Both the position numbers and the translations under genes were made by a program. Below, one piece after another: positions 10,104-56,922 of a stretch of DNA of 64,000 bases; the first letter of the stretch is position 1, and the number at the start of each line of letters is the position of its first letter. The stretch is from NCBI GenBank assembly GCA_015520485.1, contig WAPX01000053.1, positions 27,336-91,335 on the forward strand, written 5' to 3'. A model generated the notes under the pieces. The model did not search any database and had not been told where the DNA came from. It worked only from the letters and a program-made list of their open reading frames with translations. The stretch comes from Archaeoglobaceae archaeon. Lineage in GTDB: Archaea; Halobacteriota; Archaeoglobi; Archaeoglobales; Archaeoglobaceae.

Positions 10104-10144
10104 GCAAAACATTTATTTGATTTTTTACTGCAGTGAATTTGTAC

Positions 10145-37612: not shown

Positions 37613-37626
37613 CTGCCGGTTCATCT

Positions 37627-38560: not shown

Positions 38561-38608
38561 TTTGTTATCGTAATTTTTTTCAACAGAGCGATCATTACAA
38601 AATACTAT

Positions 38609-39229: not shown

Positions 39230-39235
39230 AGGAGA

Positions 39236-40334: not shown

Positions 40335-40478
40335 AGCTCCGCACGATTTTTAATGCTGTCATTTAAGCCTGTTTTTATTGATTCTGATTAAGCGAGAAAC
40401 AGCTTTTACGACCTCCGAATATTCGATAACCGATATAGTTTTATACAGTGTGCTTTCGTAAACAGATTTAAGCAACCG

Positions 40479-41036: not shown

Positions 41037-41048
41037 GGTGATGTAAAA

Positions 41049-43148
41049 ATGAAAAAATTAATGATTGTAACGGCAGTTCTGTTTGTGCTTGTGGCTTTGC
41101 AGCCTGTCTCAGCTATCTCAGCTGAAATGAACTTCCACGCAACGTGTGTTCCAGACACTCTGCACCCGGGAGAGCTCGCAAAGCTGACGATTCTAATAGA
41201 CAACGACGCCAAAGCCAGTGGATTTGTTGTAAACGCAAACACTTCAGAACTGCTTAAGATGATAACAACTGTTTACAACGTTAGAGCAAATTTAAGCGGA
41301 GACCTGCCGTTTACGGTTGAGAACGCACACTATCAGTTCGTTGGAACGATTCCGCAGGGAATGCCCGGAAAGGCTGTTTTTATCGTTAAGGTTCCCGATA
41401 ACGCAAAGCCGGGTACGTACAGCATACCAGTTACTCTGAAATACACGCAAATAGTGGCAACTCCAACATCACAGGGCTTCTCTCTCACGTACCTTGATGA
41501 CCAGGTGGATACGGTTTACGCTAAGATAAGCATAGCGAGAAAGGATTTCGATGTAAGCCTGAAGTCAAATTCTGCTCTCTACGCAGGGGCCGAGGGTACT
41601 GTAAAAATTGCGGTAATCAACACTGGCAGATACACGATGGACAACGTGAGCGTTGCTGTTAACACAACACCGCCCTTCATGCCCAACGTCGGAGCGGCCA
41701 CAGCGTTTCTGGGAAAGCTGAGTCCGGGTCAAACGAAGTACGCAAGCATAAAGCTCTTCGTCTCAAGTTCAGCGGTAAATCAGACCTACCCGCTTAGAGT
41801 TCTCGTGGTTTTCACGACTCCCGGTGGAAAGCCAGTCATGATACCCAAGGAAGTTGGAATCAGAGTTCTGAGCAGAGATGTGTTTGAGGTTAGCGTTCTG
41901 AACTCGAGAGTTCCCAGATACGTGCCTCTTCCACCTACCACAGGTTTATCGCAGCCTCAAACTCTTCAACAAGCACAATCAACGCCTTCCGTGATGTCTC
42001 CAACTTCAACGCATCTTCCATCGATGTCATCGCCTCTTCCGTCAGCTCTGTCGGGCGCCAGCACGCAGTCCACTGCATCAAACACAGTACCTTCCATAGG
42101 CTACATGACTCTTGAAGTTAAGGACTGCTCATCGCTTGCCAAAGATGTAACGGTCAACGTTATTTTCACGAACCCTATGCTCACCGCAGTAAACAATCCG
42201 TATCTCGGAACGCTGAAACCGGGTCAGACTAAAAAAGCGTTAATCTACGTTCGCTCTCTCGCACCCGAGGGTACGTACAAGGCTTACGTCGTAATATCCT
42301 ACAAGAACGCAGAGGGAGACAGCGTTGTGAGCAAGAAGTATCCAGTTGCTGTGAGAATAACCTCTCCAGCTTTCAAAGTTGTTGAGATAGAAACCAAGAA
42401 CCTTTACGTGGGAAACACGGGAGAAGTCGACGTAACGGTTTCTGGAAACGTCAGCAACGCAAACTTCTACCTGCTTTCTCCCGACCCGTCAATAAAGCCA
42501 GTAAGTCTGACGAGCTACGCTTTCAGTTCTAACTCAACTCTGAAGTTCAGGGTTTACGTTTCATCTCAGGCTGCTGACGGGTACCACTGCATGTACCTGA
42601 TTGGAAGGTACGACGAAGGAAATGCAACGAACCTCGTCTCAGTTCTCAAAGTGCCAGTATTCGTGGAGTCAAAGATGGTTCTATTCAGAGTCGTTAAAGT
42701 TGAAAGCATAGGTCTGTATCCTGACGAGACCGGAACTGTGAAGGTGACTGTAGTCAACGCCGGAAATACTCCTGTTTACAACGCCGTGGTTGAACTGGGC
42801 ATATCTCCACCACTATCGATAGCAGGAGAGAGCGAAATAAGCAGCATGATTGGCGTATCTACGCCCGGAATGTACTTCGTTGGAACGCTCAAGCCCAATC
42901 AGAGCGCGACTGCGTCGTTCAGAATAAAGGTGGACAAACACGCAGGAGCTGGCAGTTATCCGGCTAACGTGAGAATACTGTACTACGACAGTAACGGCTA
43001 CAAACATGTGTCCAACTCGATAACAGTGTCCGTGGAAGTTAAGAACAAGCCACTACTAACGCCTTTAACAGCTTCTGCTCTCGTATTCACGCTGATTGGT
43101 ATAGCAATAGCGGTTAGATACGCGAGAAAACGCAGGAACAAAACGTGA
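41049..43148 (+). CDS. secreted, C-terminally anchored surface protein with repeated CARDB/COG1361-like beta-sandwich domains
   Basis: Sec signal (VALQPVSA|IS). Repeated x-V-x-V-x-N-x-G modules (VKIAVINTGRYTMDNVSV, VKVTVVNAGNTPVYNAVV). A Pro/Ser/Thr/Gln-rich linker at about nt 41930-42100. C-terminal TM helix plus a basic tail RKRRNKT. Confidence 0.6.
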   Translation: MKKLMIVTAVLFVLVALQPVSAISAEMNFHATCVPDTLHPGELAKLTILIDNDAKASGFVVNANTSELLKMITTVYNVRANLSGDLPFTVENAHYQFVGTIPQGMPGKAVFIVKVPDNAKPGTYSIPVTLKYTQIVATPTSQGFSLTYLDDQVDTVYAKISIARKDFDVSLKSNSALYAGAEGTVKIAVINTGRYTMDNVSVAVNTTPPFMPNVGAATAFLGKLSPGQTKYASIKLFVSSSAVNQTYPLRVLVVFTTPGGKPVMIPKEVGIRVLSRDVFEVSVLNSRVPRYVPLPPTTGLSQPQTLQQAQSTPSVMSPTSTHLPSMSSPLPSALSGASTQSTASNTVPSIGYMTLEVKDCSSLAKDVTVNVIFTNPMLTAVNNPYLGTLKPGQTKKALIYVRSLAPEGTYKAYVVISYKNAEGDSVVSKKYPVAVRITSPAFKVVEIETKNLYVGNTGEVDVTVSGNVSNANFYLLSPDPSIKPVSLTSYAFSSNSTLKFRVYVSSQAADGYHCMYLIGRYDEGNATNLVSVLKVPVFVESKMVLFRVVKVESIGLYPDETGTVKVTVVNAGNTPVYNAVVELGISPPLSIAGESEISSMIGVSTPGMYFVGTLKPNQSATASFRIKVDKHAGAGSYPANVRILYYDSNGYKHVSNSITVSVEVKNKPLLTPLTASALVFTLIGIAIAVRYARKRRNKT

Positions 43149-43191
43149 ATAAATTTTTACAATTAATTTTTTATTTTTCAGGTGATAATCT

Positions 43192-44742
43192 ATGAACCAG
43201 AACGATAACACTTCAGAGGAGTTACCAAAGGTTAAAACGAGAGTTGGAGAAGTGAGTCCCTGGTTATCGCTGATACCCGTAATAGTTGGAACTTTCATGG
43301 TCGTTCTCGACATGAGCATCCTCATGGTTGCATTGCCGAAGATAACACAGGACTTTCAGGCAACGGCATCTGAAGTGCAGTGGCTGCTCAACGCGTACCT
43401 GATTACGCTTGTTGTTTTGCAGACCATATTCGGAAAAATAGGTGATGCCACCAGAAGAGACCTGTTTTACGCTGCTGGAATGGCGATATTTCTTACAGGA
43501 AGCTACCTCTCTGCAAAATCATGGTGTATCAGCGTGTTCATACTTTTCAGAGTTATACAAGCAGTGGGTGGAGCAATCATAATGGGTAACGGCCTCGCAC
43601 TCGTGACAGAGCTATTTCCTCCCGGTAAGAGAGGAGCCGCAATGGGTGTGGAGTCAATACTCATTGCAGCCTCTTTTGCTTTAGGCCCGGTAATCGGTGG
43701 CTGGCTCACAACCAACCTGAGCTGGCACTGGGTGTTCTACATAAACGTTCCCGTGGGACTCTTTGGTGTTTTAACGGCGTTTCTGCTATTCCCTCCACTT
43801 GGAAACGTTTCGAAGGAACCCTTGGACTACATAGGAGTCCTCCTCCTCGCAGTGGGACTGGGCTTTTTCACATTGGCTGTAATTAAAGGGCAGGACTGGG
43901 GCTGGTGGAACAGAAAGACGATATGGAGCTTTATAATCTCCTTCGCCTGGCTCACGGCATTCATAATGCGGGAGCTGAACTACGATTATCCCGTCCTTGA
44001 CTTAAGTCTGTTCAAAATAAGGAACTTCACTGCTCCAATGACAGCCCTTTTCTTCATGTCGTGGGGAATGGCGGCAGCCATATTTCTGATTCCATACTAT
44101 CTTCAGGACGTTCTCCGTCTTACAGCAGAAAGTGCAGGACTGTGGATGCTTCCGATGTCGAGCGTAAACCTCGTAGTAGCACCCATAACTGGTAAGTTAA
44201 GTGACAGGATAAATCCACAGATTATGATGTGTGCATCCCCATTTGTCTTCATATCCGGACTTGTAATGCTGTCAAATATCGGTGTAAACAACGACTTTTA
44301 CAGCCTCGTCTTACCCTTCCTCGCTCTCGGTTCGGGTATAGGGATGATAATGCCAGCAGCCATGAACGTGATGATGAGTGCCGTACCAAAAGAGAAAGCC
44401 GGTATGGCGAGCGGAACCATTCAGACCTCAAACTCTCTCGCAAGAAGCATAGGAATAAGCTTTGGAGGTGCTGTGCTTACAGGGAAGATGAACGAACTGA
44501 TAGTTAACGCTGGAAACAGAATTCCAAGTCCACAGGAGATAAAGCTTCTCGGCCTCCTCGCAGTAAAGGGTAACCCGCTACCGCTTCTCGAGATAGTCGA
44601 TGCCTTCCTCAAAGGACTGCATGCTGTCTTTATCTCAGCAATACCGATTATAGTGCTCAGCCTAATAATCTCGGTGTTCTTCGTCAGCGGAGAGGAACAC
44701 CTCAGAAAGGTCGGAACAACCAAGGTCAGCGTCGCTCTGTAA
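43192..44742 (+). CDS. MFS transporter, DHA2 (EmrB/QacA-like, 14-TMS) family
   Basis: 516 aa with about 14 TM helices. Motifs GKIGDATRRD and LFRVIQAVGGAIIM are typical of MFS drug:H+ antiporters. Confidence 0.85.
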   Translation: MNQNDNTSEELPKVKTRVGEVSPWLSLIPVIVGTFMVVLDMSILMVALPKITQDFQATASEVQWLLNAYLITLVVLQTIFGKIGDATRRDLFYAAGMAIFLTGSYLSAKSWCISVFILFRVIQAVGGAIIMGNGLALVTELFPPGKRGAAMGVESILIAASFALGPVIGGWLTTNLSWHWVFYINVPVGLFGVLTAFLLFPPLGNVSKEPLDYIGVLLLAVGLGFFTLAVIKGQDWGWWNRKTIWSFIISFAWLTAFIMRELNYDYPVLDLSLFKIRNFTAPMTALFFMSWGMAAAIFLIPYYLQDVLRLTAESAGLWMLPMSSVNLVVAPITGKLSDRINPQIMMCASPFVFISGLVMLSNIGVNNDFYSLVLPFLALGSGIGMIMPAAMNVMMSAVPKEKAGMASGTIQTSNSLARSIGISFGGAVLTGKMNELIVNAGNRIPSPQEIKLLGLLAVKGNPLPLLEIVDAFLKGLHAVFISAIPIIVLSLIISVFFVSGEEHLRKVGTTKVSVAL

Positions 44743-44848
44743 GGTTTGAATTAACCTGAATTAATTTGAGAAATCCAAGAGGAATTTAAATAAAGCGACG
44801 CAAAAGCGACAGGTAAAAAGCAAAAACGAAAGTAATCGGGGTGATTTC

Positions 44849-45742
44849 ATGCTGAGCATAGTAACGGACTGGGAAGGCCCGTGGGTTCTGAACGATTTCG
44901 CTTACGAGATATGCAGGGAACTTTTTCCTCCACTTTTTTTTGAAAAACTGAGCAGTTATGACGATTACCTCGCCTACGAGGTAAAAAAACCGGACTACAA
45001 TCCCGGAGACACACTTAGGTTAATAGCACCCTTCCTCGTCGCGAAGGGCGTTAATTCGGCATGGCTTAAAATGAAATCAAAGCCAGTTTACGTGAAAGAC
45101 GCTTTCGCCTCACTCAAAGCGCTGCGCAGGTTCAGCCTTACCGTGGCTTCGACCTCTTACGAACAGTTTCTGGAAGTCAGCTGTGGAAAGCTCGGAGTGA
45201 GGTTTACCGGAACCAAGTTCATACCTGAAAGGTACAGAATGGATACTGAGGAAAGAAAGTTTATACTCGATTCAGTTGAAAAAGTTCTTAAAGCGGACTT
45301 CGACTGGCTTGACAGGTTTTTCTGGGAAGAACTGCAAAGTTTCAAGACATCGAAAAAAATAATGGAAGAAGTAAAGGTCATGGGTGGCAGGAGAAAAATG
45401 GAAGTTGCTGCAGCTGAAAACGCCGACATCAGCATAGGTGACAGCATTTCAGACATATACATGCTCGAGCTGACGGCAAGGAAAGGTCTCGCCATCTCTT
45501 TCAACGGAAACAGGTACGCACTCGAAAAGGCAAACCTTGCAGTTGTTTCCGACACGGCTCTCGCCACCGCTGCTTCTGTGTACGTTTACGCTCTGGAGGG
45601 AGTTGAAGGCGTAAAAGAGATGTGCGGGAGCGATGGATTCTACTGGCTTCCGGAGCTGAGTGAAGAGGAGTTCGAGGATGTGATCAGAAAATCGGAGAAC
45701 CAGAGAAAAAAGGTGAGAGGAGATGCCGGAAAGCTCGGATAG
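44849..45742 (+). CDS. HAD-superfamily-like protein (possibly EhaR-like)
   Basis: N-terminal IVTDWEGP and the C-terminal IGDSISDIYM resemble HAD motifs I and IV. Assignment is tentative. Confidence 0.4.
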   Translation: MLSIVTDWEGPWVLNDFAYEICRELFPPLFFEKLSSYDDYLAYEVKKPDYNPGDTLRLIAPFLVAKGVNSAWLKMKSKPVYVKDAFASLKALRRFSLTVASTSYEQFLEVSCGKLGVRFTGTKFIPERYRMDTEERKFILDSVEKVLKADFDWLDRFFWEELQSFKTSKKIMEEVKVMGGRRKMEVAAAENADISIGDSISDIYMLELTARKGLAISFNGNRYALEKANLAVVSDTALATAASVYVYALEGVEGVKEMCGSDGFYWLPELSEEEFEDVIRKSENQRKKVRGDAGKLG

Positions 45743-46625
45743 CTACGATGCTGTATGTTTTGGAGCTCTGAATGCTGATGTAATCTTCATTGTCGATAAA
45801 ATACCGCAAAAAGACGATGAAACTTACGTTCTGGATGTGAAGGTATCCTCTGGAGGTTCAGCAGCAAACACCGCTTCTGCTCTTGCGAGTTTTGGAAACA
45901 GGGTTGCATTCGTCGGTGGAGTTGGAAAGGACGAATACGGAGAAATGCTCGTCAGTGAACTCAGGAGGTTTGGCGTTGTACCGTTTCTGACTGAAGGCAA
46001 GAGAAGCGGGAAGGCAATCGTCCTCGTAAACACCGCCGGTGACAGGGCAATTCTCGTGGATCCGGGAGTTAATGACGAGATAAACTCTTTCCCCAAAGTT
46101 AAGGGGAAGATCCTTCATCTCACGTCTTTCGTATGCAGAACAAGTGATGCTCCTTTTCTTGCTCAGCTAAAAGCCGCCAGCGTGTTCGATGTCGTCAGCT
46201 TCGACCCTGGAATGATATACGCTGAAAGAAGTGACGTGTGGAGGCTGATAGAGAAGTGCTCGGTATTCCTGCCAAACGCCAGAGAAGTTGAGAAGATAAC
46301 TGGTCTCGATTACAGGAGAGGTGCGGAGAAAATATTTAGCAGGATGAAAAATGGGGTCGTGGTTGTAAAACTCGGGAGCAAGGGATGCTACGCAACTGAT
46401 GGAAAAACGGAGCTGAAGATACCGGCTTTTGACGTTAAAGTTATCGACACAACGGGAGCTGGAGACGCTTTCAACGCCGGCTTTCTGCATGCATGGTTAA
46501 AGGGATACAGCCTGGAAATCTGCATGAAAGCTGGAAATTTCGTGGCTGCACATAACATACAGTACTACGGAGCGAGAAATTTTCCAGATTTGAACGATTT
46601 AAAAGCGTTTCTCGATTCCCTGTGA
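45723..46625 (+). CDS. PfkB-family carbohydrate kinase
   Basis: GGSAANTA and DTTGAGDAFNAGFL motifs. Overlaps the upstream gene by 20 nt. Confidence 0.88.
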   Translation: MPESSDSYDAVCFGALNADVIFIVDKIPQKDDETYVLDVKVSSGGSAANTASALASFGNRVAFVGGVGKDEYGEMLVSELRRFGVVPFLTEGKRSGKAIVLVNTAGDRAILVDPGVNDEINSFPKVKGKILHLTSFVCRTSDAPFLAQLKAASVFDVVSFDPGMIYAERSDVWRLIEKCSVFLPNAREVEKITGLDYRRGAEKIFSRMKNGVVVVKLGSKGCYATDGKTELKIPAFDVKVIDTTGAGDAFNAGFLHAWLKGYSLEICMKAGNFVAAHNIQYYGARNFPDLNDLKAFLDSL

Positions 46626-46630
46626 TGTTT

Positions 46631-47038
46631 TTACCTCATGAAATAGTAAGCGAGAGCTATTATTAGTATTAGGGCTGCTACTGCTATGGCAATGTCTATA
46701 ACAATGAGCTTCCCTCTCGAGTACGGTTTCGCTCTGCGTCTGGGAACTTCTCTGATTACGTTCAGCTCGCAGTCTATGTAACCTTTTTCTATGAGTCTCT
46801 CTATCGCCTTGCTGACGACTATCTCCGGATACCCGGTCATTCTGGATACAGCTCTGACGTTTTTTGTCTCTTTCAGACACCTGAGCACATTAAGCTCGAC
46901 GTCTGAAATCTGCCCTGCCACTCTGAATCTGGCTTTTTCAGTTTTTTGTTTTCTCTTTTCACTTTTTTCAGTTTTCTCAATTTTCTCAGTCTCCATATAC
47001 GTATCGTCGTCCATCAGAGCATCGATTACGTCGCTCAT
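46631..47038 (-). CDS. membrane-anchored winged-helix protein (paralogue of 49849-50226)
   Basis: Start chosen at MSDVIDAL (nt 47038), preceded by GGGGGTGGAG immediately after the MinD stop. Acidic/Lys-rich N-terminus. wHTH NVLRCLKETKNVRAVSRMTGYPEIVVSKAIERLIEKGYID and a C-terminal TM helix. Confidence 0.6.
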   Translation of the reverse strand: MSDVIDALMDDDTYMETEKIEKTEKSEKRKQKTEKARFRVAGQISDVELNVLRCLKETKNVRAVSRMTGYPEIVVSKAIERLIEKGYIDCELNVIREVPRRRAKPYSRGKLIVIDIAIAVAALILIIALAYYFMR

Positions 47039-47049
47039 GCTCCACCCCC

Positions 47050-47799
47050 TCATAGCCTGAGTATGTACTTCAGCTTTCCGTATGGTCTGGGATAAACGTT
47101 CTCCCCGGCAACCCTTCTTGCAAGCAGGTAAAACTCCTCTGACACCTTTGCCTCCGGTTTTACAGCTGTAACTACATAACTTTTTTCCCATCCTCTCTTA
47201 ATTGCCTTTGACTCCCTGATTATGCCTGCGATTCTGCCAACTCTCTTTTCAGCCATGGCAACAGCCCACTTTTCGCCCTTATACCTGTTCACTATTACAC
47301 CTTCAAAATCGACGTCCATCTGATCTATGACCTTTCTCACTCTCCATGCATCCATTATCGATGTCTCTTCCGGATTGAGAACTATGTAGATCTTTTCACA
47401 CCCCATCATGGGTACGAGAGCGTATTTGCTCAGTCCGGCAGCTACATCAACAACAACGAAATCATAAGCCTCTCCAAGCTCTTCGAGTATGTTTGTAAAC
47501 GCCTGAATGTTCTTTACCTCAGAAGGAGTTTGAGACGAGGGCATGACGTCTAAGGAAATATCTCCTACTCTGATTCTGTACAGAGCATCTTCAATTCTGG
47601 CTTTTCCTGAAATAACGTCAATAAGAGTTACATTTGGTTCAAATCCAAAAATGGCGTGCAGGTTCGGGAGAACGACATCACCATCCACGACAGCAACACT
47701 TCCAAAATTCGTTAACACGGCAGAAAGGTTGGCAGATACCGTGGTTTTTCCAACACCCCCCTTTCCGGAACATATACCAACAACTGGCATAAGCTGCAC
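47050..47799 (-). CDS. MinD/ParA-family P-loop ATPase
   Basis: Deviant Walker A SGKGGVGKTT and the Walker B-like motif FVVVDVAAG. 249 aa. Confidence 0.85.
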   Translation of the reverse strand: MQLMPVVGICSGKGGVGKTTVSANLSAVLTNFGSVAVVDGDVVLPNLHAIFGFEPNVTLIDVISGKARIEDALYRIRVGDISLDVMPSSQTPSEVKNIQAFTNILEELGEAYDFVVVDVAAGLSKYALVPMMGCEKIYIVLNPEETSIMDAWRVRKVIDQMDVDFEGVIVNRYKGEKWAVAMAEKRVGRIAGIIRESKAIKRGWEKSYVVTAVKPEAKVSEEFYLLARRVAGENVYPRPYGKLKYILRL

Positions 47800-47906
47800 C
47801 TTTGCAGCTCTATTGCAATCGTGCTTTTATGCTTTCAGTTTTTTTAACAGCCTCAGAATTTTACGGCATTGTCAGCTTCTTTGATTTATCCTCGATCTCT
47901 TGAAAA

Positions 47907-49844
47907 ATGATAAACTATTTATCTCTTTTCATTAATTCGCCCGATATGGCTGCACTCTCAAACTCAGGTAAGAAAGGTGCAGTATTGATTTTCACGATTA
48001 TATTTGTTCTCATACTTTCATCACAACCCTGTCTCGGTTTCTCACCGGCCGATTTTCATGCTGCAATAGTTACTGAAGTTTACAGCTACGGGCATTACAT
48101 TCCACGATACTGCAACGTATTCAAGCCCGGAGACACGATGAAACTGTACTTGGCGGTTGATAACGTGAACGTAAACAGGGCTGCTGCCGTTGACTTCGTC
48201 ATAATCATAAAAGACCCAAATGGTTACGTTGTTTACGGTAATGTGGAAAGCGTAACTACTTTAAGTTATAAAGACAAAATATACAGAGTTATAGACATCA
48301 GCATCCCAGACGACTGGATATGCGGGAAATACACTGTTGACGCTTACGCATTCGACATCCTCAACACTCTCCCAACCCAGGTAAGTTACAACAACCTGTA
48401 CAACAAAATCCTGTACTCCGGCAATGCTTCTCCTTCCATATCCACGATTTCAAGAAAAAATGCTCCTTACGCCAAAAAAGAACTGACGTTCTACGTGAGC
48501 GAAACTCTGCCGGAAAAGTTCTACATCTTCAACCCGAAGTTAGAGGCAAAAACTCTGCCAGTCGGCGTTTCCAACACGCTTGAAGTTTCCGTTCTCAACC
48601 CTGCAGATGTAAACGCCAGAACAACAGTTAGGGTTCTGGTCGACGGCAGGGTTGTGGATTCAAAGGAAGTTACAATTCCGCCGAGAGATGCAAGGAATGT
48701 AGCCCTAACGATCCCACCTCTCAAAGGTGGAACGCACTTTATAAGGGTTGAAGCTGAACACGCAGGCTACATGCTAACCCTGCCCATCGTTATTTCGCCT
48801 TTGATTTACGATAAAAGTATTGTTACCGGACAGGTTCTCAATGGAACAGTCATATATTCTCCAAACAACTACATCCTTGGTAGCTGCGGAATAAGCTCGG
48901 AAAACAACATAAGTCTCAGCAGGGCTCTCAGCAACCTGAACGTATCCAGCATAAACAGAGACGATGCCGTAATCATGATTACGAACATGCTTGCATACGT
49001 TTACAGAACCAACCACTACAGCGGTGTCGTTAACGTAGCTTTGCTCAGAGGGAGCGATAAAAGAGCTGAAATAATACTCCCGCAGTTACTGGACATAGTA
49101 AAAAGGGAAAGTCACGCTCCACTAAATTACGTTGGAGTTAGAGATGCGTTACACCTGAAAGATGTTAAAGTACTGTTCTACGTTGGAAGTCATCCTGATT
49201 TTAAAGTTACTTTTTTAAAGTACTTCTTCAGGAATAACGGTACACTTATATGCGATAACCCGAACTACTGGAGTTCGTACAAAGACGAGCTCGCAAACAT
49301 GCTTCTAACAATCGGCGGGTGGAGAATAGGCTCGAATTCCGGTATATACAATTCCTACTACAACCTGAGGATCGACAAAGGTTTTGTCGTGAAGATTTCC
49401 ACAGTAACGCAGATGCCAACAAAGTTTGAGTTCCTTTCGCTCAGAGTTGAAGGTCCACCCGGCACAGGCATGCCTCCTCTCGTTAACGTCAGCACTCCCG
49501 TGAACGTAACGCTTAAGATCAGAAACGTTGGAAGGAGCGGTGGGGAGGAGATTAAGGTTAACATAAACGGAAAGACTGTGTTCGACAAAAAGGTATTTCT
49601 CGAAACGGGACAGTACAAGACCATAACATTCCAGTACATTCCTCAGAAACCGGGCAGCTACAGAGTTACCGTTCCGGGAACGAGTTTAATGCAGATCTTT
49701 TTCGTCAAGTCACCAAGCGGTCAGGTTGCAGCACCAACTCCGGTCAAAAAACCCCCATCGCACAGAGCGGGAGCGGCAGTGGTCGCAATTTCAGCAGCAG
49801 TACTGGCAGTGCTCGTCATAGCAAGGATACTTCTTAGAGATTAA
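47907..49844 (+). CDS. large secreted, C-terminally anchored protein with CARDB-like domains
   Basis: N-terminal hydrophobic signal (KKGAVLIFTIIFVLILSSQPCLG). CARDB-like modules (LEVSVLNPADVNARTTVRVLVDG..., VNVTLKIRNVGRSGGEEIKVNINGK...). C-terminal TM helix. Confidence 0.5.
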   Translation: MINYLSLFINSPDMAALSNSGKKGAVLIFTIIFVLILSSQPCLGFSPADFHAAIVTEVYSYGHYIPRYCNVFKPGDTMKLYLAVDNVNVNRAAAVDFVIIIKDPNGYVVYGNVESVTTLSYKDKIYRVIDISIPDDWICGKYTVDAYAFDILNTLPTQVSYNNLYNKILYSGNASPSISTISRKNAPYAKKELTFYVSETLPEKFYIFNPKLEAKTLPVGVSNTLEVSVLNPADVNARTTVRVLVDGRVVDSKEVTIPPRDARNVALTIPPLKGGTHFIRVEAEHAGYMLTLPIVISPLIYDKSIVTGQVLNGTVIYSPNNYILGSCGISSENNISLSRALSNLNVSSINRDDAVIMITNMLAYVYRTNHYSGVVNVALLRGSDKRAEIILPQLLDIVKRESHAPLNYVGVRDALHLKDVKVLFYVGSHPDFKVTFLKYFFRNNGTLICDNPNYWSSYKDELANMLLTIGGWRIGSNSGIYNSYYNLRIDKGFVVKISTVTQMPTKFEFLSLRVEGPPGTGMPPLVNVSTPVNVTLKIRNVGRSGGEEIKVNINGKTVFDKKVFLETGQYKTITFQYIPQKPGSYRVTVPGTSLMQIFFVKSPSGQVAAPTPVKKPPSHRAGAAVVAISAAVLAVLVIARILLRD

Positions 49845-49848
49845 CGGG

Positions 49849-50226
49849 ATGATCAGGAAATCGATTGGTGGTATAATGGATGTTGAAAGTTTACCCGAAC
49901 TGTCAGATCTGGAAGAATGCGTGCTTGAAAGAATACTCATGGGAGAGAAAAAGAGTAGTAAAATTACTTCAGGATGCGGAATAACGGAAATAGTTCTAAA
50001 TGTCATCATCGAGAGACTCGTGGAAAAGGGCTACATAGACTGGGAGCTGAATCCAACTGACCTCGCTTACAAAAAGCTTTTCTGGGTTGGAGGAACTTAT
50101 CCGGTGGAATACTACATGGACACGAAGAAGTACCTGAAAATGGTTCTGGAGCTTGCAATAGCAGTGGCGTTCTTCATGTTTATATCGTTCCTTGCAATAT
50201 ACGTAAAAATGCTTTCATGGGGTTAG
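49849..50226 (+). CDS. membrane-anchored winged-helix protein (paralogue of 46631-47038)
   Basis: CVLERILMGEKKSSKITSGCGITEIVLNVIIERLVEKGYIDWELN plus a C-terminal TM helix. Shares the ERL-x-EKGYID-x-ELN block with the other copy. Confidence 0.6.
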   Translation: MIRKSIGGIMDVESLPELSDLEECVLERILMGEKKSSKITSGCGITEIVLNVIIERLVEKGYIDWELNPTDLAYKKLFWVGGTYPVEYYMDTKKYLKMVLELAIAVAFFMFISFLAIYVKMLSWG

Positions 50227-50230
50227 TCGC

Positions 50231-50968
50231 ATGGAGTTCGAACTTGAAATGTTGGCATCGGAAGCTTTTGGACTTACGCTGCTGGCAGGAATGTCCCTAA
50301 TTTTAACACTTTACAAGATGGGATGCAGAATCCCTCTTTTTGAAAGGGTGAGGCTGTTCAGTTTTGGTAAGAAGAGAAAGGACTTCGTTAACTTTTCAAT
50401 TCAGGTTTTAAAGCACGAAAATCCACCGTACGGCAGAATTGCCACAACTCTTACCATTTTCTGCATTCTGCTCTATCTAACTCTATCGCACAAGTTGTTC
50501 TTTGCTGTGGTGGTTTCGGACAGCATGTACCCGACTTTCCAGAGAGGGGATATGTATCTCGCTCAGGCGATATACGTCAATCCAAAACCGGGAGACATAA
50601 TAATGTTCAGGAGACCTGACGTTGGTTTGCCCGTTTCTCACAGAGTGCTGAAGATAGTCGGAAATAAAATATACACTGGAGGAGACGCTTCTGGTCCGGA
50701 TCTGATACCCATAACAAGAAAGGACGTTATAGCTCAGGCAGTAATGGTAAGTGGCAGGCCAATAGTGATTCCCGGAATAGGTAAGTACTTCATACTGAAC
50801 GCCAAGCAGATGAGAAGCATTGGACCCTACGGAGAGGAGTACCTATTTTACCAGCAGCTCATTAAAACCTTCAAGAGCTACGCCATAGCCATAATCGTAA
50901 TCTGCCTAAGTGCCTACGTATATCTGGAGCTGGAGAGCTACAGCTACCGGAAAATGGTGAAAAAGTAA
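50231..50968 (+). CDS. Sec11/SipW-type (archaeal/ER-type) signal peptidase I with extra N-terminal TM region
   Basis: Catalytic Ser box VVVSDSMYPTF, His box PVSHRVLKI and a GD box YTGGDASGPD. TM helices at both ends. Confidence 0.75.
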   Translation: MEFELEMLASEAFGLTLLAGMSLILTLYKMGCRIPLFERVRLFSFGKKRKDFVNFSIQVLKHENPPYGRIATTLTIFCILLYLTLSHKLFFAVVVSDSMYPTFQRGDMYLAQAIYVNPKPGDIIMFRRPDVGLPVSHRVLKIVGNKIYTGGDASGPDLIPITRKDVIAQAVMVSGRPIVIPGIGKYFILNAKQMRSIGPYGEEYLFYQQLIKTFKSYAIAIIVICLSAYVYLELESYSYRKMVKK

Positions 50969-50975
50969 CTCGTTT

Positions 50976-51854
50976 TTAGCTCCTGAGCCACCTGGTAACC
51001 TCACTTATAAACGATCTGGTCTTTCTGAACAGGAAATTTGGCTTGGACTTTGAAACGTATATTTCGTCTCCTTCATTTCTGGACAATACTGTACCCCCAG
51101 AACCTTCACTTCCTTTCTTCTCACTCTTTTCGCTTCCTGCCAGCTCCTGAGCGTACAGGTAGTACAGGTATGCGTAGAGAAGGGACGTTGCAAAAATTAC
51201 GCCCATTAGAGGTGCAACGCCGAAAAGCGTCTGAATAACTATGGACATTGCCGGAACTATTAAAACTGGAATACCCATGACAAGCCAAGCCTCAAACCTG
51301 CTGAACAGTCCGAATTCCTTGGTTATGTATGCCCACCATATTATGTAGAGTACAGGAAACAGGTAGGGAGAATACCCCATGTAGTAGTTCAGCATGAACA
51401 GGTAGGCACCTATGTAAATTAAGCTTACAACGATAGATTTCATGTAAAACGAAATCCTTCCGAGAGGTATGCTCTCCACTTCTGTTTTTTCAAGTCTCTC
51501 TACCTTAGTTGCAAGTTTTTCGAGTTCAGCCTTAACTTCGCTGAGCTCAACCGTACTGTATGCAATTTCCTCAAGAACTGGTCTTAGCCTTGCAAAGACG
51601 AGCTCGTCAAAAACCTCGTCTGTCATTGCAGAAAGCTTTAAAAGCTGCTTGTAGAGCTTCAGACCTCCACCTGTGAGCACTATCCCAAAAGTAAAGAAAA
51701 CGACATCTGTCATCAGGTATTCGAATCCTCTTCCAGATGAAAAATCGTTGTAGAGCGAGACTATTGAAGCGACCAGAACACCCAGTCCAATGACAACGGA
51801 AACTGCAATTACTGTTTTTTCCACGTACTTCATTGCACTGCGTTTCAATCTCAT
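50976..51854 (-). CDS. polytopic membrane protein with central coiled coil
   Basis: 292 aa. Two N-terminal TM helices, a coiled-coil segment (ELSEVKAELEKLATKVERLEK), about four further TM helices and a Ser/Gly/Lys-rich tail. Confidence 0.45.
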   Translation of the reverse strand: MRLKRSAMKYVEKTVIAVSVVIGLGVLVASIVSLYNDFSSGRGFEYLMTDVVFFTFGIVLTGGGLKLYKQLLKLSAMTDEVFDELVFARLRPVLEEIAYSTVELSEVKAELEKLATKVERLEKTEVESIPLGRISFYMKSIVVSLIYIGAYLFMLNYYMGYSPYLFPVLYIIWWAYITKEFGLFSRFEAWLVMGIPVLIVPAMSIVIQTLFGVAPLMGVIFATSLLYAYLYYLYAQELAGSEKSEKKGSEGSGGTVLSRNEGDEIYVSKSKPNFLFRKTRSFISEVTRWLRS

Positions 51855-51878
51855 AATTTATAAGCATTTTCTAAATGT

Positions 51879-51896
51879 GCTCGAAAAAATTCGAGC
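51879..51896. promoter_or_regulatory. perfect 18-bp palindrome in divergent intergenic region
   Basis: GCTCGAAAAAATTCGAGC (7-bp arms, 4-nt centre). It lies between the divergently oriented genes 50976-51854 (-) and 51981-52892 (+). Confidence 0.4.
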
Positions 51897-51980
51897 TTCA
51901 GAAAATGGAGTTAAAGCATTTCTGGAAAACATTCAATCTGTGCTGAGCGAAACCGATTTATAGGCTGCAATCGCATTATA

Positions 51981-52892
51981 ATGATAGTGAAGATGAGAAA
52001 AAAAAGTAGCGGTCAGCTCAGCCTAGATGTGCTTGTCGGTCTTACAATATTCATGATTACGTTTATATTTATACTTCAATACTTACCTTCAGTTTTCGTT
52101 GTTCAGAGAAGTGACATATCTCTTAGTTCTGAAGCTTACAGAGTGGCAGCACTGCTTGCTGAAAGTCCCGGGTACTGGACTAACGGAACACATAACGGTA
52201 CTGACTGGGAAAACCACTGGAAGAACAGTGATGTGACCGTGAGAGCCGGTTTGTGCGGTAATAATCCCGGGGAGCTGCTAATATCCAAAATACTGAACTT
52301 TTCCGAGATGTACGAACAGAAGGGATACGACAGCATAGCGGAGATGTTTGGAATCGAGAACTACAACATATCACTGCAGTACCCGTACAGCAACTCATCC
52401 AACCCTGTTTATTCGTACTACAACGGAAAGCCCCTTCTTTCAATAGGAAAACCTGTACCCAGATATGGAGATGTTGTGAGGTATGAGAGAATTGTTTACT
52501 TTGATAATGCCTCTTTCTTTTACGACATTACGACTTCAAAACCGGGAGTAAATAAAACGAAAATTCTGAACGTTACAGCACCCATAGGTGTATTCACGTT
52601 TGTTGTTACAAAAACCGGAATCTGGGGTAACGGAACTGGAGGTAGCTGGATAATCGTAAAAATTAGTAGGGGTAATGGATGGGGCGGGCAAAAAATACTC
52701 AGAATTCCCGCAAATGGGGGTTACCTTGCTCCGGGAGTTTACAACTTGGCAGATCAGATATCTGAGAAAATTCCCGGGGTTGTTAATCTGACTGTCATCT
52801 CTCACAATCTGGCAGGCTATCTGATTTATTCGAGTGCCGGACAGTACATTGCCGGCAGGGTTGTAGCCAAGCTCGTCGTCTGTGTCTGGTGA
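51981..52892 (+). CDS. type IV pilin-like protein (class III signal peptide)
   Basis: N-terminus MRKKSSG|QLSLDVLVGLTIFMITFIFIL. The remainder is sequon-rich and beta-rich. Confidence 0.65.
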   Translation: MIVKMRKKSSGQLSLDVLVGLTIFMITFIFILQYLPSVFVVQRSDISLSSEAYRVAALLAESPGYWTNGTHNGTDWENHWKNSDVTVRAGLCGNNPGELLISKILNFSEMYEQKGYDSIAEMFGIENYNISLQYPYSNSSNPVYSYYNGKPLLSIGKPVPRYGDVVRYERIVYFDNASFFYDITTSKPGVNKTKILNVTAPIGVFTFVVTKTGIWGNGTGGSWIIVKISRGNGWGGQKILRIPANGGYLAPGVYNLADQISEKIPGVVNLTVISHNLAGYLIYSSAGQYIAGRVVAKLVVCVW

Positions 52893-53457
52893 GTGCGGAG
52901 GTGGTTCTTTGAGAGTGTTTACTGACATTAAATTGATTAAATCGGACTGTAAGGCTCAGGCATTTACGTTGGAAAGCATAGCGGCAGCTCTGCTGTTACT
53001 AATAGTGGCTTACTTTCTCTTTCGCTCCACTCTCATAATAGCACCTCAATCCACGCAGGTTGTGGATGTTCAGCTCAGCCAGTACGCAAAAGACACGCTC
53101 AGAATACTGGACAACCCGTCCTCTCCCACAAACGATACGCTGGAATACGTGGTGGAGCACTTGAATTCAAGTGATTTTAAAGAGGTCGTTGCACCCCTCG
53201 TAAACGCCACAAGAGAGTGCTTACCGAAAGATGTTGGATTTAATTTTGCTGTTTACTACTACAACTACACTACGAAAAAAGTTGAGAGATTAAACCTCAC
53301 GGACTTCGAACCATTTTCAAGCACAGTCACAGCTTCGAGGTACATAGTTCTGAACAGCAAGGACTTCGTTAGCGGTTCTCCATTCGTCAGCACAGCTCCT
53401 GAAAGTGGCAACTATCCTGTCGTTGTGGAGGTGAGGTTAACGCTATGGCGGATCTGA
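52882..53457 (+). CDS. type IV pilin-like protein (class III signal peptide)
   Basis: SDCKA|QAFTLESIAAALLLLIVAYFLF. A TTG/GTG start about 5-10 nt after GGAGGTGG (about 52906-52914) is more likely than the track start. Confidence 0.6.
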   Translation: MSGECGGGSLRVFTDIKLIKSDCKAQAFTLESIAAALLLLIVAYFLFRSTLIIAPQSTQVVDVQLSQYAKDTLRILDNPSSPTNDTLEYVVEHLNSSDFKEVVAPLVNATRECLPKDVGFNFAVYYYNYTTKKVERLNLTDFEPFSSTVTASRYIVLNSKDFVSGSPFVSTAPESGNYPVVVEVRLTLWRI

Positions 53458-53855
53458 TGAAGGATAACAGGGGTCAGATAATTATAATACTGACGCTGTT
53501 CATATCAGTCCTGCTTGCAGAGCTATCTCTTGTTTACACTCAGAACATACTTGCGGGAATGGAGAGCAGTACAGCTCAGCTGATGTTTCCCAAGTACCCC
53601 ATAGAAAACCTCAGAAGAATAGCGCTGGTTGACCTGAAAAACTACGCCAAGTCAAATCCATCTGGATTTCTTGAATACGCACAGAAGATTGACCAGCAGG
53701 TTGAGAGGCTCTATGCTGAACACGGCTGTTATGCGAGCATAGATATACTCGATGTAAAATATACCAGCTCAAATCAAATCTCTTGCTATACTGTTAAAAT
53801 AATATTTTTCAATTCAGGTGTAGATTATGAAGATACGGAGACGGTTGCTGTGTGA
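53445..53855 (+). CDS. type IV pilin-like protein (class III signal peptide)
   Basis: MKDNRG|QIIIILTLFISVLLAELSLVY. 136 aa. Confidence 0.6.
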   Translation: MADLMKDNRGQIIIILTLFISVLLAELSLVYTQNILAGMESSTAQLMFPKYPIENLRRIALVDLKNYAKSNPSGFLEYAQKIDQQVERLYAEHGCYASIDILDVKYTSSNQISCYTVKIIFFNSGVDYEDTETVAV

Positions 53856-56208
53856 TAGAAAAGGAGTGTCTGTACTTGTGGAATACATCCTGATAATCGG
53901 AGTACTTGCCCTGCTCATGACGTTCATAGTTCCCCAGCTGAACACTCTGATGTCCAGAATGCCAACTGCAAACGCCATGAAAAATCAGTTTCAGGACGTT
54001 GCAAGTGAAATCTCAGCTCAGATAACGGATATGCTTCTTGTTTCACCAAAAAACGGGATTGTTAAAAGCAGGGTTTACATGCCCGCTTCGGTGGGCAGGG
54101 AAACTTATGACGTTAAACTGGAGAACGGTAAGCTCGTGGTTAAATCAAATCTGTGGACACAGAAAGTTGATCTGGGTAAATCAACTTTGGGCTTCTTAAC
54201 CAAGGGGAGGACTTTCAGCAGCGAGTTAACTCACGAGATAGTTCTTAATTCGTCAATTCATATACTGCCCACTGCAGTGGCAATAGTTTACCCGACTGAG
54301 GCTGCTGTCGGAGAGAACGTAACTCTTGACATGACGCATTCGTACGGGGAAGGAACACTGTACTACAGATGGATAATAAGCAGCAGTAGCGGTACTATTA
54401 CCGTTTTACCACAAAACTCTTGGAAAGAATACAATCCAGTAAACCCCGAAACCGGGATAACGAGCTGGAAATTTAACGCTCCGGGTAACTACACGGTAAA
54501 GCTGGAAGTTAAAGATAGCCTTGGTTACGTAAGCTCGGATAGCGTTGAAGTTAACGTTACCTCAAATCCACAACCGAAACTCTACGTGAACAAGTACATC
54601 GTTCCTTCAACAATCACACCCGGGCAGAGCTCAACTATTAACATCTTTCTCTTTGGTAACGGAATAAACCAGACTTCACTCAACATCACGGTCATTCACA
54701 CAATAGATGCGTCTGGAAGCATGAACGAGGTCACACCGCTTTCAAGTACAACTGGAAATGTTACCTCTTCTCCGACAATTGTAAAAATAAACATAAACAA
54801 CAGCAATTACGACTACCTGATTTTTGTTACAACTAACGATTTCGACAGCTTTTACTGGGACTACGGTATAAGACCAGTATCCCTGTACGTTAAATCTCCA
54901 GATCAAAACTACTTCGTACAGGCCTCAGACGTCTGGTCAAATGGGAGTCAGGATGGTTACGGTTACTTAATCACCAATCCAAACACAGGCACGTGGTATT
55001 TAGCAATAAACGACCTGAACCCAAAGTCCGATGAAACCGTCAGTATTCAGGTTTACTCGGGACGTTACTTTATCAGGTGGTTTGAAATTTACGGCACGGT
55101 TTACAGCACTTCTGTTGTTGCACACAAAACTTATAGCAGTTATGGAATAAACGTTCCGGAAGAAGCAACGGAATTCGATGTACAGCTGATACCTGTTCAA
55201 ACTCCAGCAAGTCTCTATTTGTGGTTGAAAGATAACTCCACGGGCACATATTACATTAACTCCTCAAACTACTGGATAAACATAACCAGTCCATCAGCCG
55301 GCTATACGGCGTATGTTGTTCCAAGTATGCCTCCAGACACAACTACGGGATACTACCTCAATACGTACATACCAAAGATAGATGCTGCAAAAATTGCTGC
55401 CAAGACGTTTAACGGGATGCTGAGAAAGTACGACTACGTTGGTGTTGTAAAGTTCAACGACTATTACGCCACCTACGTTGTGAACCCGCCAACCAACGAT
55501 ACCGATTCGGTGAACAATTCCATAGATTTGATAACTGCTGATGGTTACACTCCAATGGCTTCAGGGTTGAGTTACGCAATAAACGAGCTCGACAGCTTTA
55601 ACAATAGCAAAAACAGCCCTGCAGTTGACGTTATAATTCTTCTCTCCGATGGAAACCCCAACATAGATCTGGCTGGTCACTACAACGTCAGACAGGCGAT
55701 TTCAGATACCATTAAGGAAGCAGAAATAGCGAAAAGCAAGGGCTACATAATCTACACGATAGGTTACGGAACTGATGCAAACGTAACTCTTCTACAACAA
55801 ATAGCGGAAATCACCGGGGGTAAGTTCTACTTTGCCGCCAGCGCTCAGGAACTGAAGAACATATACCAGTCCATAGCAAAAGATGTCTTCACAAAAGTAG
55901 CCGAAAACGTTACCGTTACGGATGTGATACCCTCCGGTGTTGAAGTACTTTCAACGACTGGAAACGTGACGAAAACTGCAAAGGGGACTGTTGTTTCTTG
56001 GACGCTTCCAGTTGTGAGAATTAACCAGAGCTGGACGGGAAGCATAACGATTACCACGACCAGAACTGGAGTTGTTCTGACAGATGTCGTTAACGTTTCA
56101 AACGTAACGTACTTTGACGTTGTGAACTCCAAACAGGTTACAGTTCCTTTGCCCGTTAAGGAGCTAAACGTTACCGTAACGAAGTCGGCGAGTTTTGAAC
56201 TTAAATGA
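53827..56208 (+). CDS. large pilin-like adhesin: class III signal + PKD-like domain + vWA domain (split by an insertion) + C-terminal beta-sandwich
   Basis: CDRKG|VSVLVEYILIIGVLALL. PKD-like WKFNAPGNYTVKLEVKDSLGYVSSDSVEVNV. vWA MIDAS residues DASGS (aa 294-298), GYT (T575) and LLSDG (D608). Confidence 0.75.
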   Translation: MKIRRRLLCDRKGVSVLVEYILIIGVLALLMTFIVPQLNTLMSRMPTANAMKNQFQDVASEISAQITDMLLVSPKNGIVKSRVYMPASVGRETYDVKLENGKLVVKSNLWTQKVDLGKSTLGFLTKGRTFSSELTHEIVLNSSIHILPTAVAIVYPTEAAVGENVTLDMTHSYGEGTLYYRWIISSSSGTITVLPQNSWKEYNPVNPETGITSWKFNAPGNYTVKLEVKDSLGYVSSDSVEVNVTSNPQPKLYVNKYIVPSTITPGQSSTINIFLFGNGINQTSLNITVIHTIDASGSMNEVTPLSSTTGNVTSSPTIVKININNSNYDYLIFVTTNDFDSFYWDYGIRPVSLYVKSPDQNYFVQASDVWSNGSQDGYGYLITNPNTGTWYLAINDLNPKSDETVSIQVYSGRYFIRWFEIYGTVYSTSVVAHKTYSSYGINVPEEATEFDVQLIPVQTPASLYLWLKDNSTGTYYINSSNYWINITSPSAGYTAYVVPSMPPDTTTGYYLNTYIPKIDAAKIAAKTFNGMLRKYDYVGVVKFNDYYATYVVNPPTNDTDSVNNSIDLITADGYTPMASGLSYAINELDSFNNSKNSPAVDVIILLSDGNPNIDLAGHYNVRQAISDTIKEAEIAKSKGYIIYTIGYGTDANVTLLQQIAEITGGKFYFAASAQELKNIYQSIAKDVFTKVAENVTVTDVIPSGVEVLSTTGNVTKTAKGTVVSWTLPVVRINQSWTGSITITTTRTGVVLTDVVNVSNVTYFDVVNSKQVTVPLPVKELNVTVTKSASFELK

Positions 56209-56920: not shown

Positions 56921-56922
56921 GA

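Follow-up and report, generated by a model that had tools for sequence, protein, structure and literature searches.

Positions 46631 to 51854 of the window, by which we mean the whole 64,000-nucleotide stretch of contig WAPX01000053.1 (Archaeoglobaceae archaeon, assembly GCA_015520485.1), hold six open reading frames (ORFs), which a check of the ORFs found where an earlier sequence-only note on this DNA (the original prediction) had placed them. The same genes are called in six public assemblies of the organism, including GCA_015521425.1 (WAOE01000036.1), GCA_027057715.1 and the ENA REYS20-1 scaffolds, and the nearest species-level relatives of the window are titled Archaeoglobaceae or Archaeoglobus sp. 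The genes encode a MinD-family ATPase, two membrane-anchored winged helix-turn-helix (wHTH) proteins, a surface protein with a CARDB domain (CARDB632), a signal peptidase and a polytopic membrane protein (TM292). Together they probably form a dedicated module for the maturation and regulation of surface proteins, linked to cytochromes. The features are as follows.

46631-47038/47053, minus strand: wHTH1, a tail-anchored winged-helix protein of 135-140 aa
47050-47790/47799, minus strand: MinD-family ATPase of 246 aa, with the deviant Walker A motif GKGGVGKT
47903-47935, plus strand: promoter-like element aaatGATAAACTATTTATCtcttttc, conserved upstream of CARDB632
47946-49844, plus strand: CARDB632, a Sec-secreted, C-terminally anchored surface protein
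49876-50226, plus strand: wHTH2, a tail-anchored winged-helix protein of 116 aa (the ORF runs from 49849; gene callers start at 49876)
50231-50968, plus strand: S26B (Sec11-type) signal peptidase of a putatively specialised family, with an extra N-terminal transmembrane (TM) segment
50976-51833, minus strand: TM292, a polytopic membrane protein of 285 aa
13670-14359 and 14356-15630, plus strand: candidate clients outside the module, a homologue of a nanowire subunit and an 8-haem cytochrome

Some details of this layout differ from the original prediction. The anchored CARDB-like surface protein described there does have a CARDB domain, a signal peptide and a C-terminal TM segment; its length, given as 645 aa, is 632 aa, because bases 47907-47945 sit in an invariant non-coding promoter-like element and the gene starts at ATG 47946. 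With this start, the divergent spacer, reported as 107 bp, therefore measures ~146-155 bp. The ORF of 292 aa at 50976-51854 (minus strand), which was absent from that note's title, is conserved alongside the peptidase more widely than any other gene, and we named it TM292; gene callers place its start at 51833, which gives 285 aa. CARDB632, wHTH2 and the peptidase are co-directional with gaps of 4-31 nt, and this arrangement is kept in more than 20 loci.

Related loci were collected by scanning genomes, one per species, with the peptidase alignment, which yielded 28 loci, and by tblastn and hmmsearch with the proteins of the window. The scan missed Archaeoglobus veneficus despite the gene being present there, so absence from the scan is not evidence of absence. 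The full module occurs in A. veneficus and in ~12 further species-level genomes, with wHTH1 and MinD on the strand opposite to CARDB, wHTH2 and the peptidase, and with TM292 convergent. Loci of the Geoglobus/Ferroglobus type contain CARDB, a weakly matching wHTH2, the peptidase and TM292, and searches started from the CARDB homologues independently found the peptidase adjoining. The conserved core is CARDB632, wHTH2, the S26B peptidase and TM292, and MinD and wHTH1 are an Archaeoglobus-type addition. This conservation supports the view, already put forward in the original prediction, of a surface-protein biogenesis and regulation module rather than a set of housekeeping genes. At two loci of a genome with a lone peptidase, L077 and L078 (GCA_964389535.1, SRR7051179), both independent assemblies break ~125 nt after wHTH2, where the peptidase follows in other lineages.

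The surroundings of the module are less constant. In A. veneficus the upstream order is ArgG, a 297-aa hypothetical protein, PfkB and then the module, and TM292 is followed by a GPN-type GTPase and a helicase instead of the pilin operon that stands there in the window. The lineage of the window carries ~9 kb of extra upstream DNA relative to A. veneficus, with a PadR gene, a 699-aa surface protein and a major facilitator superfamily transporter. Given this new upstream insert and the varying downstream neighbour, both flanks have therefore been remodelled with the module intact. The insert, which has no counterpart in A. veneficus, spans 35930-44849 (G+C 0.371 at 38001-40000), between ArgG and the genes for the 297-aa hypothetical protein and PfkB; PadR is encoded at 40479-41036, and the 699-aa product of 41049-43148, an anchored NPCBM_assoc/CARDB-like protein, is not a paralogue of CARDB632. 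A defence or mobile element was considered for the module and rejected in view of the ordinary composition, the conserved chromosomal synteny and a PADLOC match found only in the wHTH region of wHTH1.

The peptidase is a type I signal peptidase with Ser, His and GD boxes, as the original prediction had it, and is of the S26B type. It barely passes TIGR02228, the archaeal equivalog model (55.8 bits, cut-off 51.85), and the peptidase of a relative in which it is fused to wHTH2 falls below that cut-off at 48.7 bits. When the family profile was compared with the PDB, it returned human SEC11C and SEC11A with E ~6e-12 to 8e-12, the Ser (SDSM), His (SHRV) and GGDAxGPD stretches being aligned; the His and GGDAxGPD region aligns with HRV and GDNN..D of human SEC11A/C. 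The catalytic Ser box SDSMYPT follows the TM segment of residues 76-94, and S96, S98, M99 and P101 are invariant in 25 sequences. The general base is His: H137 and R138 are invariant, as are G150, G151, D152 and D157 of the GGDAxGPD stretch. The topology comprises an extra N-terminal TM segment, a basic loop of ~40 aa ahead of the catalytic TM segment and domain, and a C-terminal TM segment. The predicted activity of this S26B peptidase is signal-peptide cleavage.

The peptidase and TM292 have appeared as a pair before. Chadwick et al. 2022 (PMC9012536) describe a signal peptidase and an unannotated integral membrane protein labelled "8x TMH" (TM helices), encoded upstream of CcmF2/MHC-B in ANME-2a, 2b and 3 of the anaerobic methanotrophic archaea (ANME) and found also in Geoglobus and Ferroglobus. 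In the same account both proteins are missing from a subclade of ANME-1 without cytochrome c, and BLAST found no homologues in other organisms. Our searches add A. veneficus-type Archaeoglobus to the organisms listed there. In a Methanosarcinales metagenome-assembled genome (MAG; locus L040), the order is two small multihaem cytochromes, the peptidase, a TM292 homologue (tblastn E 6.9e-21 from the window's TM292) and a multihaem cytochrome of 2204 aa. A metagenome scan seeded with a five-sequence TM292 alignment, and so biased to ANME-like relatives, gave 33 loci, and in 19 of them the peptidase directly precedes TM292. All 13 of these 19 that have enough downstream sequence continue with a long ORF with up to 32 CxxCH motifs, 1900-2000 aa in most. 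The peptidase -> TM292 -> giant cytochrome order of the ANME cassette (Chadwick et al. 2022) is thus the same in L040 and in the metagenome loci, and the window's pair (50231-50968 and 50976-51833) is likewise directly adjacent. The window cassette differs in that it has no adjoining cytochrome and is joined to CARDB632, two wHTH genes and MinD, all unmentioned by Chadwick et al. 2022.

On the other side of the peptidase, the ANME-like loci are equally uniform. By the family hidden Markov model, a cytochrome gene of the PDB 8E5G family lies directly upstream of the peptidase in 17/17 loci with upstream sequence, and the small cytochrome of L040 matches 8E5G with E 1.1e-14. This structure is that of AvECN, the extracellular cytochrome nanowire subunit of A. 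veneficus, reportedly described by Baquero and colleagues in Cell in 2023. In Archaeoglobus sp. JdFR-37 (L030), two 8E5G homologues (one matching the PDB entry with E 7.9e-50), a 10-haem cytochrome and a 6-haem cytochrome are encoded around the module, three of the multihaem cytochrome genes lying upstream of it. The 6-haem gene is co-directional with MinD, and the locus continues with CARDB and wHTH2, then two small secreted proteins, then the peptidase. Genes resembling CobA, HemC, HemL and HemB, read by eye from the translations, follow directly after the peptidase there (9170-13119). Geoglobus-type loci have a 6-haem cytochrome gene divergent from CARDB, and in L075 CARDB is preceded by genes for a multihaem cytochrome and a cytochrome b. 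The window itself encodes an 8E5G homologue (13670-14359, E 3.5e-44) and, by CxxCH counts, an 8-haem cytochrome (14356-15630), so the organism may make cytochrome filaments; the two genes stand beside a fibrillarin gene and a complex I-like operon (NuoH/NuoD/NuoB-C type). With homologues in the window, beside the module in JdFR-37 and upstream of the peptidase in ANME-like loci, AvECN represents a candidate client of the module that is encoded outside 46631-51854.

An N-terminal hydrophobic region and then P(S/Q)TxS(L/M)FxG(Q/S)H are common to the nanowire-type cytochromes of both orders, and both proteins of 13670-15630 have the motif as P(Q/S)TxSLFxGxH. The giant cytochromes have ordinary AxA-type signal peptides. 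In a neighbour-joining tree of 44 peptidases, the ANME-like clade stands apart from Archaeoglobaceae, with the lineages next to cytochrome genes in basal positions. The pairing of peptidase and TM292 is old and is shared with ANME-type Methanosarcinales. The genes that repeatedly adjoin this cassette in relatives encode multihaem cytochromes, not pilins, a point missed in the original prediction.

TM292 has four strong and about two weaker TM segments, a charged helical loop of ~65 aa and a WWxxITxEF motif, in which W166 and W167 are invariant and T171 and E173 nearly so; P194 is invariant as well. The WW pair would lie inside a TM helix, with the large loop cytoplasmic by the positive-inside rule. 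The archaeal family comprises 57 representative clusters at 50% identity in a search of a representative library. Its longer members have two extra C-terminal hydrophobic segments, which brings the count to eight TM segments and fits the "8x TMH" label of Chadwick et al., and from position and architecture TM292 appears to be that gene. Among distant members (P0081, P0083, P0084, of Thermoplasmata type, and P0104), some have long N-terminal regions of tetratricopeptide (TPR) repeats (587-663 aa), and in one protein of 1483 aa the TM292 domain follows a beta-propeller/Ig region. These fusions show the TM292 domain in use as a membrane module in other contexts.

The claim that the peptidase is dedicated rather than housekeeping probably holds, and it draws on relatives of the organism rather than on the window's own genome. 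Literature searches gave no usable count of Sec11 paralogues in Archaeoglobus. A search of 5.8 billion proteins gave 45 close relatives or clusters at 50-92% identity; the few with a source name are Archaeoglobus or Archaeoglobaceae, A. veneficus is the sole named isolate, and no named match came from A. fulgidus or other cytochrome-poor isolates. The family has one copy per genome in the 28 genomes scanned, and no second S26 motif was found in the 64-kb window or its flanks. In one relative (L081), the module and a second, canonical S26B peptidase lie on the same 13.7-kb contig. This second enzyme (341 aa) has a single N-terminal TM segment, a KGDNN box and a C-terminal extension with a TM segment, scores 73.5 bits against TIGR02228 and is 29% identical to the module peptidase. 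Because a canonical Sec11 is on the same contig, the module peptidase would be specialised, and not the sole copy, in L081. Three points favour a family of specialised paralogues: the second Sec11 of L081, the few named relatives and the reported absence of the pair from cytochrome-free ANME-1. The peptidase is also co-operonic with the secreted CARDB632, as would be seen for a dedicated peptidase. The second S26B gene of L081 is part of a cluster at 7353-12130 (JGI Ga0164311_10000933), 5 kb from the module, where it follows a DUF7344 wHTH gene and three genes for DUF1102 secreted proteins and is accompanied by two unannotated genes; this looks like another substrate-plus-dedicated-peptidase cluster.

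Two known systems help to place such an arrangement. The tapA-sipW-tasA operon of Bacillus subtilis is a fibre operon with its own dedicated signal peptidase, SipW, of the endoplasmic reticulum/archaeal type. The analogy with SipW made in the original prediction survives in part. An S26B (Ser/His) peptidase is indeed co-operonic with a secreted structural protein and, at least in the relative, is accompanied by a second signal peptidase. However, the module peptidase scores just 21.2 bits against the NCBIfam model NF046067 (cut-off 190), its cargo is an anchored 632-aa multidomain protein without a SipW-cognate signal rather than a TasA-fold fibre subunit, and the SipW system has no counterpart for TM292, the wHTH proteins or MinD. 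In the eukaryotic signal peptidase complex (7P2P, 7P2Q), SEC11A/C are the closest solved relatives of the module peptidase, and the shared idea is that of a catalytic Sec11 with dedicated membrane subunits. TM292 and wHTH2 have no detected sequence relation to SPC12, SPC25 or SPC22/23.

CARDB632 starts with a signal peptide (..SQPCLG|FSPADF), followed by Ig-like sandwiches, an alpha/beta domain, the CARDB domain (Pfam E 4e-9; each of the 17 family members has it), a linker rich in proline and a TM anchor. In the AlphaFold model the mean predicted local distance difference test score (pLDDT) is 80.7, and a model of the alpha/beta domain in the middle reaches 87.5. No PDB fold match below E 1e-3 was found for this middle domain, and a fold search with the whole model gave just generic Ig-array matches with TM-scores of at most 0.17. 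Weak DUF4159 and BatD Pfam matches in 4 of the 17 family members are unconfirmed. Upstream of the gene lies an element of ~30 nt with the consensus aaatGATAAA(C/G)TATTTAT(C/T)tctttyc, which ends 22 nt before ATG 47946 and contains a dyad, GATAAA-N3-TTTATC, at 47909-47923. The element is invariant in a 7-locus alignment in which the surrounding spacer diverges. The exact dyad, which has a single occurrence in the window, also precedes CARDB genes just 36% identical to the window's, and at every other Archaeoglobaceae CARDB locus examined except L030 the start is preceded, about as closely, by a variant with 1-3 mismatches; the element is recognisable in Geoglobus-type loci too. We read the element as a putative promoter, similar to a TFB-recognition element (BRE) and TATA box, of a leaderless CARDB operon, with the dyad as a candidate operator.

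The two wHTH proteins have the same architecture, with one C-terminal TM segment each, and their paralogy, noted originally from a shared ERLxEKGYIDxELN block, is borne out by 36% identity (BLASTP E 6e-12). At the DNA level this block is an inverted repeat of 44 nt (46761-46804, 50008-50051) with 86% identity, compared with the 36% of the whole proteins, which may reflect strong constraint on the region of the recognition helix or gene conversion. In wHTH1, a conserved N-terminal peptide, (I/V)IDxLMDD, is followed by a charged linker, the wHTH domain and the TM segment (residues 116-134); the protein is kept after MinD in 10 loci, across which the N-terminal motif can be aligned. Its family matches are weak and concordant: Pfam HTH_27 (PF13463; E 0.0013, 19.4 bits, cut-off 22.2), the Csa3 wHTH (E 2.3e-4) and a PADLOC CARF-wHTH (E 5.9e-6). 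The family profile matches the Lrp/AsnC wHTH in the PDB weakly (E 0.0025), and wHTH2 had no match in a Pfam scan. DNA binding by these domains is a prediction. The wHTH proteins are confined to Archaeoglobaceae, and Geoglobus/Ferroglobus-type loci have weak homologues of wHTH2 in the corresponding place.

One lineage encodes wHTH2 and the peptidase as an in-frame fusion, a single protein of 337-340 aa. The fusion is represented by two clusters, P0027 and P0032, which differ by eye at many positions, by loci L075 and L081 and by several independent assemblies. Its order is wHTH, TM, peptidase TM1, basic loop, TM2 and catalytic domain, which matches the topologies predicted separately for the two proteins; these put the wHTH and the loop in the cytoplasm and the catalytic domain on the outside. 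The fusion provides a Rosetta-stone argument for physical or functional coupling of wHTH2 and peptidase. A natural fusion of a winged helix with a signal peptidase is unusual, and it hints that protein export and gene regulation are directly connected at the membrane. Membrane-bound HTH regulators are known from the Sulfolobus archaellum, where ArnR and ArnR1 serve this function. The module proteins resemble them in having a cytoplasmic wHTH with a C-terminal TM tether and in the weak match to the same family (HTH_27). They differ in being much smaller (116-140 aa), with a single tail anchor, no sensor region and scores below the Pfam cut-off, in their restriction to Archaeoglobaceae and in the fusion of one paralogue to the peptidase in some lineages.

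The ATPase has the Walker A motif SGKGGVGKTT, and its top PDB matches are the archaeal MinD structures 1G3Q (E 1.5e-30), 1ION and 1HYQ. It scores 154.1 bits against TIGR01969 (minD_arch), under the cut-off of 201.75, and only 98.9 bits with MinD-1 of A. fulgidus; its place below the minD_arch cut-off marks it as a divergent paralogue. In 15 loci its gene keeps its place with the module, and the protein ends in a very short conserved C-terminal tail, PYGKLKY(I/L)L(RL/G). These observations set it apart from the common archaeal MinD orthologue and make it a module-specific paralogue. The likeness to TadZ/CpaE drawn in the original prediction did not survive, as the protein consists of the 246-aa ATPase domain alone and lacks the N-terminal domain of TadZ. 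With the archaeal MinD/FleN/TadZ ATPases (arCOG00589; Haloferax volcanii MinD4), it shares the deviant Walker A motif, and it is closest to the archaeal MinD structures; it differs in falling below the minD_arch cut-off and in being tied to a tail-anchored wHTH protein and a secretion module rather than to a pilus or archaellum locus. Genes for such ATPases frequently accompany those of regulators and of membrane proteins that are not related to one another (Makarova et al. 2016). A contact between MinD and wHTH1 could, by analogy, be akin to those of ParB or MinE peptides with their ATPases.

We favour the reading that these genes are a conserved cell-envelope module of Archaeoglobaceae, with its own peptidase and partner, that matures CARDB632 and likely also cytochromes, and we put the probability of this overall picture at roughly 0.55. 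In this scheme the peptidase, coupled to wHTH2 and working with TM292, would remove the Sec signal peptide of CARDB632, and probably also processes nanowire-type cytochromes encoded elsewhere (13670-15630). TM292 would be the membrane partner that holds or anchors the substrate. The membrane-tethered wHTH proteins may act on the dyad-containing CARDB promoter, so feeding the state of the membrane complex back to expression, and MinD, as an ATP-dependent membrane-binding dimer, may position or gate wHTH1 through its conserved N-terminal acidic peptide. This specific regulatory scheme is tentative, and we regard it as possible rather than probable.

Several observations weigh against the favoured reading. 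Unrelated genes, those for PfkB and the 297-aa hypothetical protein, share the synteny, so some of the conservation only reflects a gene order passed down vertically in a single family, and just one member of the peptidase family was found per genome. One clade keeps the peptidase by itself in a housekeeping neighbourhood (PcrB, UbiA, LysE, peptidase, EPSP synthase), and in a MAG of this clade, GCA_964389535.1, wHTH1, MinD, CARDB and wHTH2 are on another contig. This clade is nested inside module-bearing clades, which makes the separation derived and the linkage ancestral; it nonetheless means that tight linkage is not obligatory and that the peptidase may serve wider substrates. The signal peptide of CARDB632 is of the ordinary AxA type, and an NCBIfam scan gave no SipW-cognate signal-peptide model for it. 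TM292 belongs to no Pfam family, and scans with family members gave chance-level matches (oleosin, KxDL). The conserved dyad overlaps the apparent BRE/TATA and may be just part of a strong promoter. Finally, no multihaem cytochrome is encoded at 46-58 kb of the window, the nearest being the pair at 13670-15630, 33 kb away, and in A. veneficus no cytochrome gene adjoins the module.

Of the other explanations, the one that fares best is strict cytochrome c maturation, as proposed by Chadwick et al. 2022, in which TM292 handles haem, the peptidase trims multihaem cytochromes, and CARDB632, MinD and the wHTH proteins are bystanders. The tight linkage to cytochrome genes in the ANME-like loci, the conserved tryptophans in a TM helix of TM292, the haem-biosynthesis-like genes beside the module in JdFR-37 and the published statement on the pair (PMC9012536) all speak for it. 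Against this, the Archaeoglobaceae cassette stays joined to CARDB632 and wHTH2 even where no cytochrome is adjacent, and the wHTH2::peptidase fusion is left unexplained. Haem handlers such as CcmC and CcmF typically have conserved His residues and a periplasmic loop of the WWD type. TM292 appears to have neither, which makes a role in haem handling less plausible. We therefore consider strict cytochrome maturation unlikely.

It is quite unlikely, in our view, that the genes have no joint function at all, with a general Sec11, a MinD paralogue for cell positioning and a gene order merely inherited vertically in one family. The single family member per genome, the lone-peptidase clade and the syntenic unrelated flanks (the 297-aa hypothetical protein, PfkB and ArgG) would be explained in this way. 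However, the peptidase-TM292 adjacency persists across orders in quite different neighbourhoods, and the pair co-varies with cytochrome c content in ANME (Chadwick et al. 2022, PMC9012536). The fusion in one lineage, the canonical Sec11 that accompanies the module peptidase on a contig of one relative and the lack of A. fulgidus or other cytochrome-poor isolates among the named matches also argue against mere inheritance.

The original prediction tied the module to the pilin operon next door, and in its full form this explanation makes MinD a TadZ/CpaE-like protein and the wHTH+TM proteins ArnR-like regulators of that operon, with the peptidase and CARDB632 as parts of a pilus encoded at 51981-57750. 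The operon encodes DUF7287, DUF7288, a 136-aa protein, a 793-aa protein with DUF7266, PKD and VWA domains, and two DUF7289 proteins; our literature search returned nothing on DUF7266, DUF7287, DUF7288 or DUF7289. A DUF123 gene (57750-58133) follows it and is retained there in L015, L016 and L018. The adjacency is real in the window and its nearest relatives, and Makarova et al. 2016 report a frequent linkage of FleN/MinD ATPases and of membrane-bound regulators to the type IV pilus loci of archaea. It is restricted, however, to the window's closest clade (L001-L006 and L015-L018, the latter with peptidase identity of at least 73%), and the module is kept with no pilin operon beside it in at least eight other lineages: A. 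veneficus, L019, L025, L028, L029, L034, L037 and L074. The six pilin-like proteins each carry a class III signal peptide ([KR][GA] and then a hydrophobic stretch), and there is a weak Pilin_N match. Signal peptides of this class are cut on the cytoplasmic side by A24 prepilin peptidases, not by signal peptidase I, which puts these proteins outside the range of the module peptidase. A Pfam scan of 30 window proteins outside the module found no type IV pilus ATPase, TadC or prepilin peptidase, and MinD, at 246 aa, is without the TadZ-type N-terminal domain. A pilin set without an ATPase among the tested ORFs fits those described apart from an ATPase by Makarova et al. 2016. The synteny already largely refutes a pilus accessory, which we regard as very improbable, and the position beside the pilin operon is a recent coincidence. 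We are correspondingly confident that the module is independent of this operon and belongs with the ANME-type peptidase/TM292 cassette.

Least probable is a ParA/ParB-like system in which MinD and wHTH1 tether or segregate DNA in the manner of SegAB/AspA, apart from the secretion genes: the succession of a Walker-type ATPase and a small protein of DNA-binding type whose N-terminal peptide is conserved, and weak profile matches to the AspA wHTH (E 0.28-0.41), would suit it, but the top matches are to MinD and not ParA, wHTH1 is membrane-anchored, one lineage has its paralogue wHTH2 joined to the peptidase in a single protein, the MinD-wHTH1 pair is always divergent from the CARDB operon, and no iterons or centromere-like repeats were found at 46400-52100, so a partition system was rejected.

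A bolder version of the favoured reading would make the peptidase and TM292, with CARDB632 as a surface base or scaffold, the dedicated maturation and anchoring machinery of AvECN-family nanowires, following a logic like that of SipW, TapA and TasA. The hydrophobic region and the P(S/Q)TxS(L/M)FxGQH motif of the cytochromes would then be the cognate signal, and through the wHTH proteins and MinD the export of nanowires would be tied to transcription and to a defined cell site. We consider this doubtful as it stands. In the literature that we searched, no machinery is described for processing, exporting or anchoring the extracellular cytochrome filaments of archaea or the giant surface cytochromes of ANME.

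Part of what is reported here was already known: the peptidase and membrane-protein pair had been mentioned, uncharacterised, and dedicated S26B peptidases such as SipW have been described. New with respect to the searched literature are the module of CARDB632, two wHTH proteins and MinD, the wHTH::peptidase fusion and the adjacency of the cassette to 8E5G-family genes. The results correct a tempting but wrong inference from the adjacency to a pilin operon. A pair noted before in ANME, Geoglobus and Ferroglobus is now tied to homologues of a solved nanowire subunit, and the same pair is present in the cultivable A. veneficus, inside a richer module. Even without the link to cytochromes, this would be a clear archaeal case of a specialised Sec11 paralogue with dedicated partners, and if the nanowire version were true, it would provide a first handle on how archaea, including ANME, build electron-conducting filaments.

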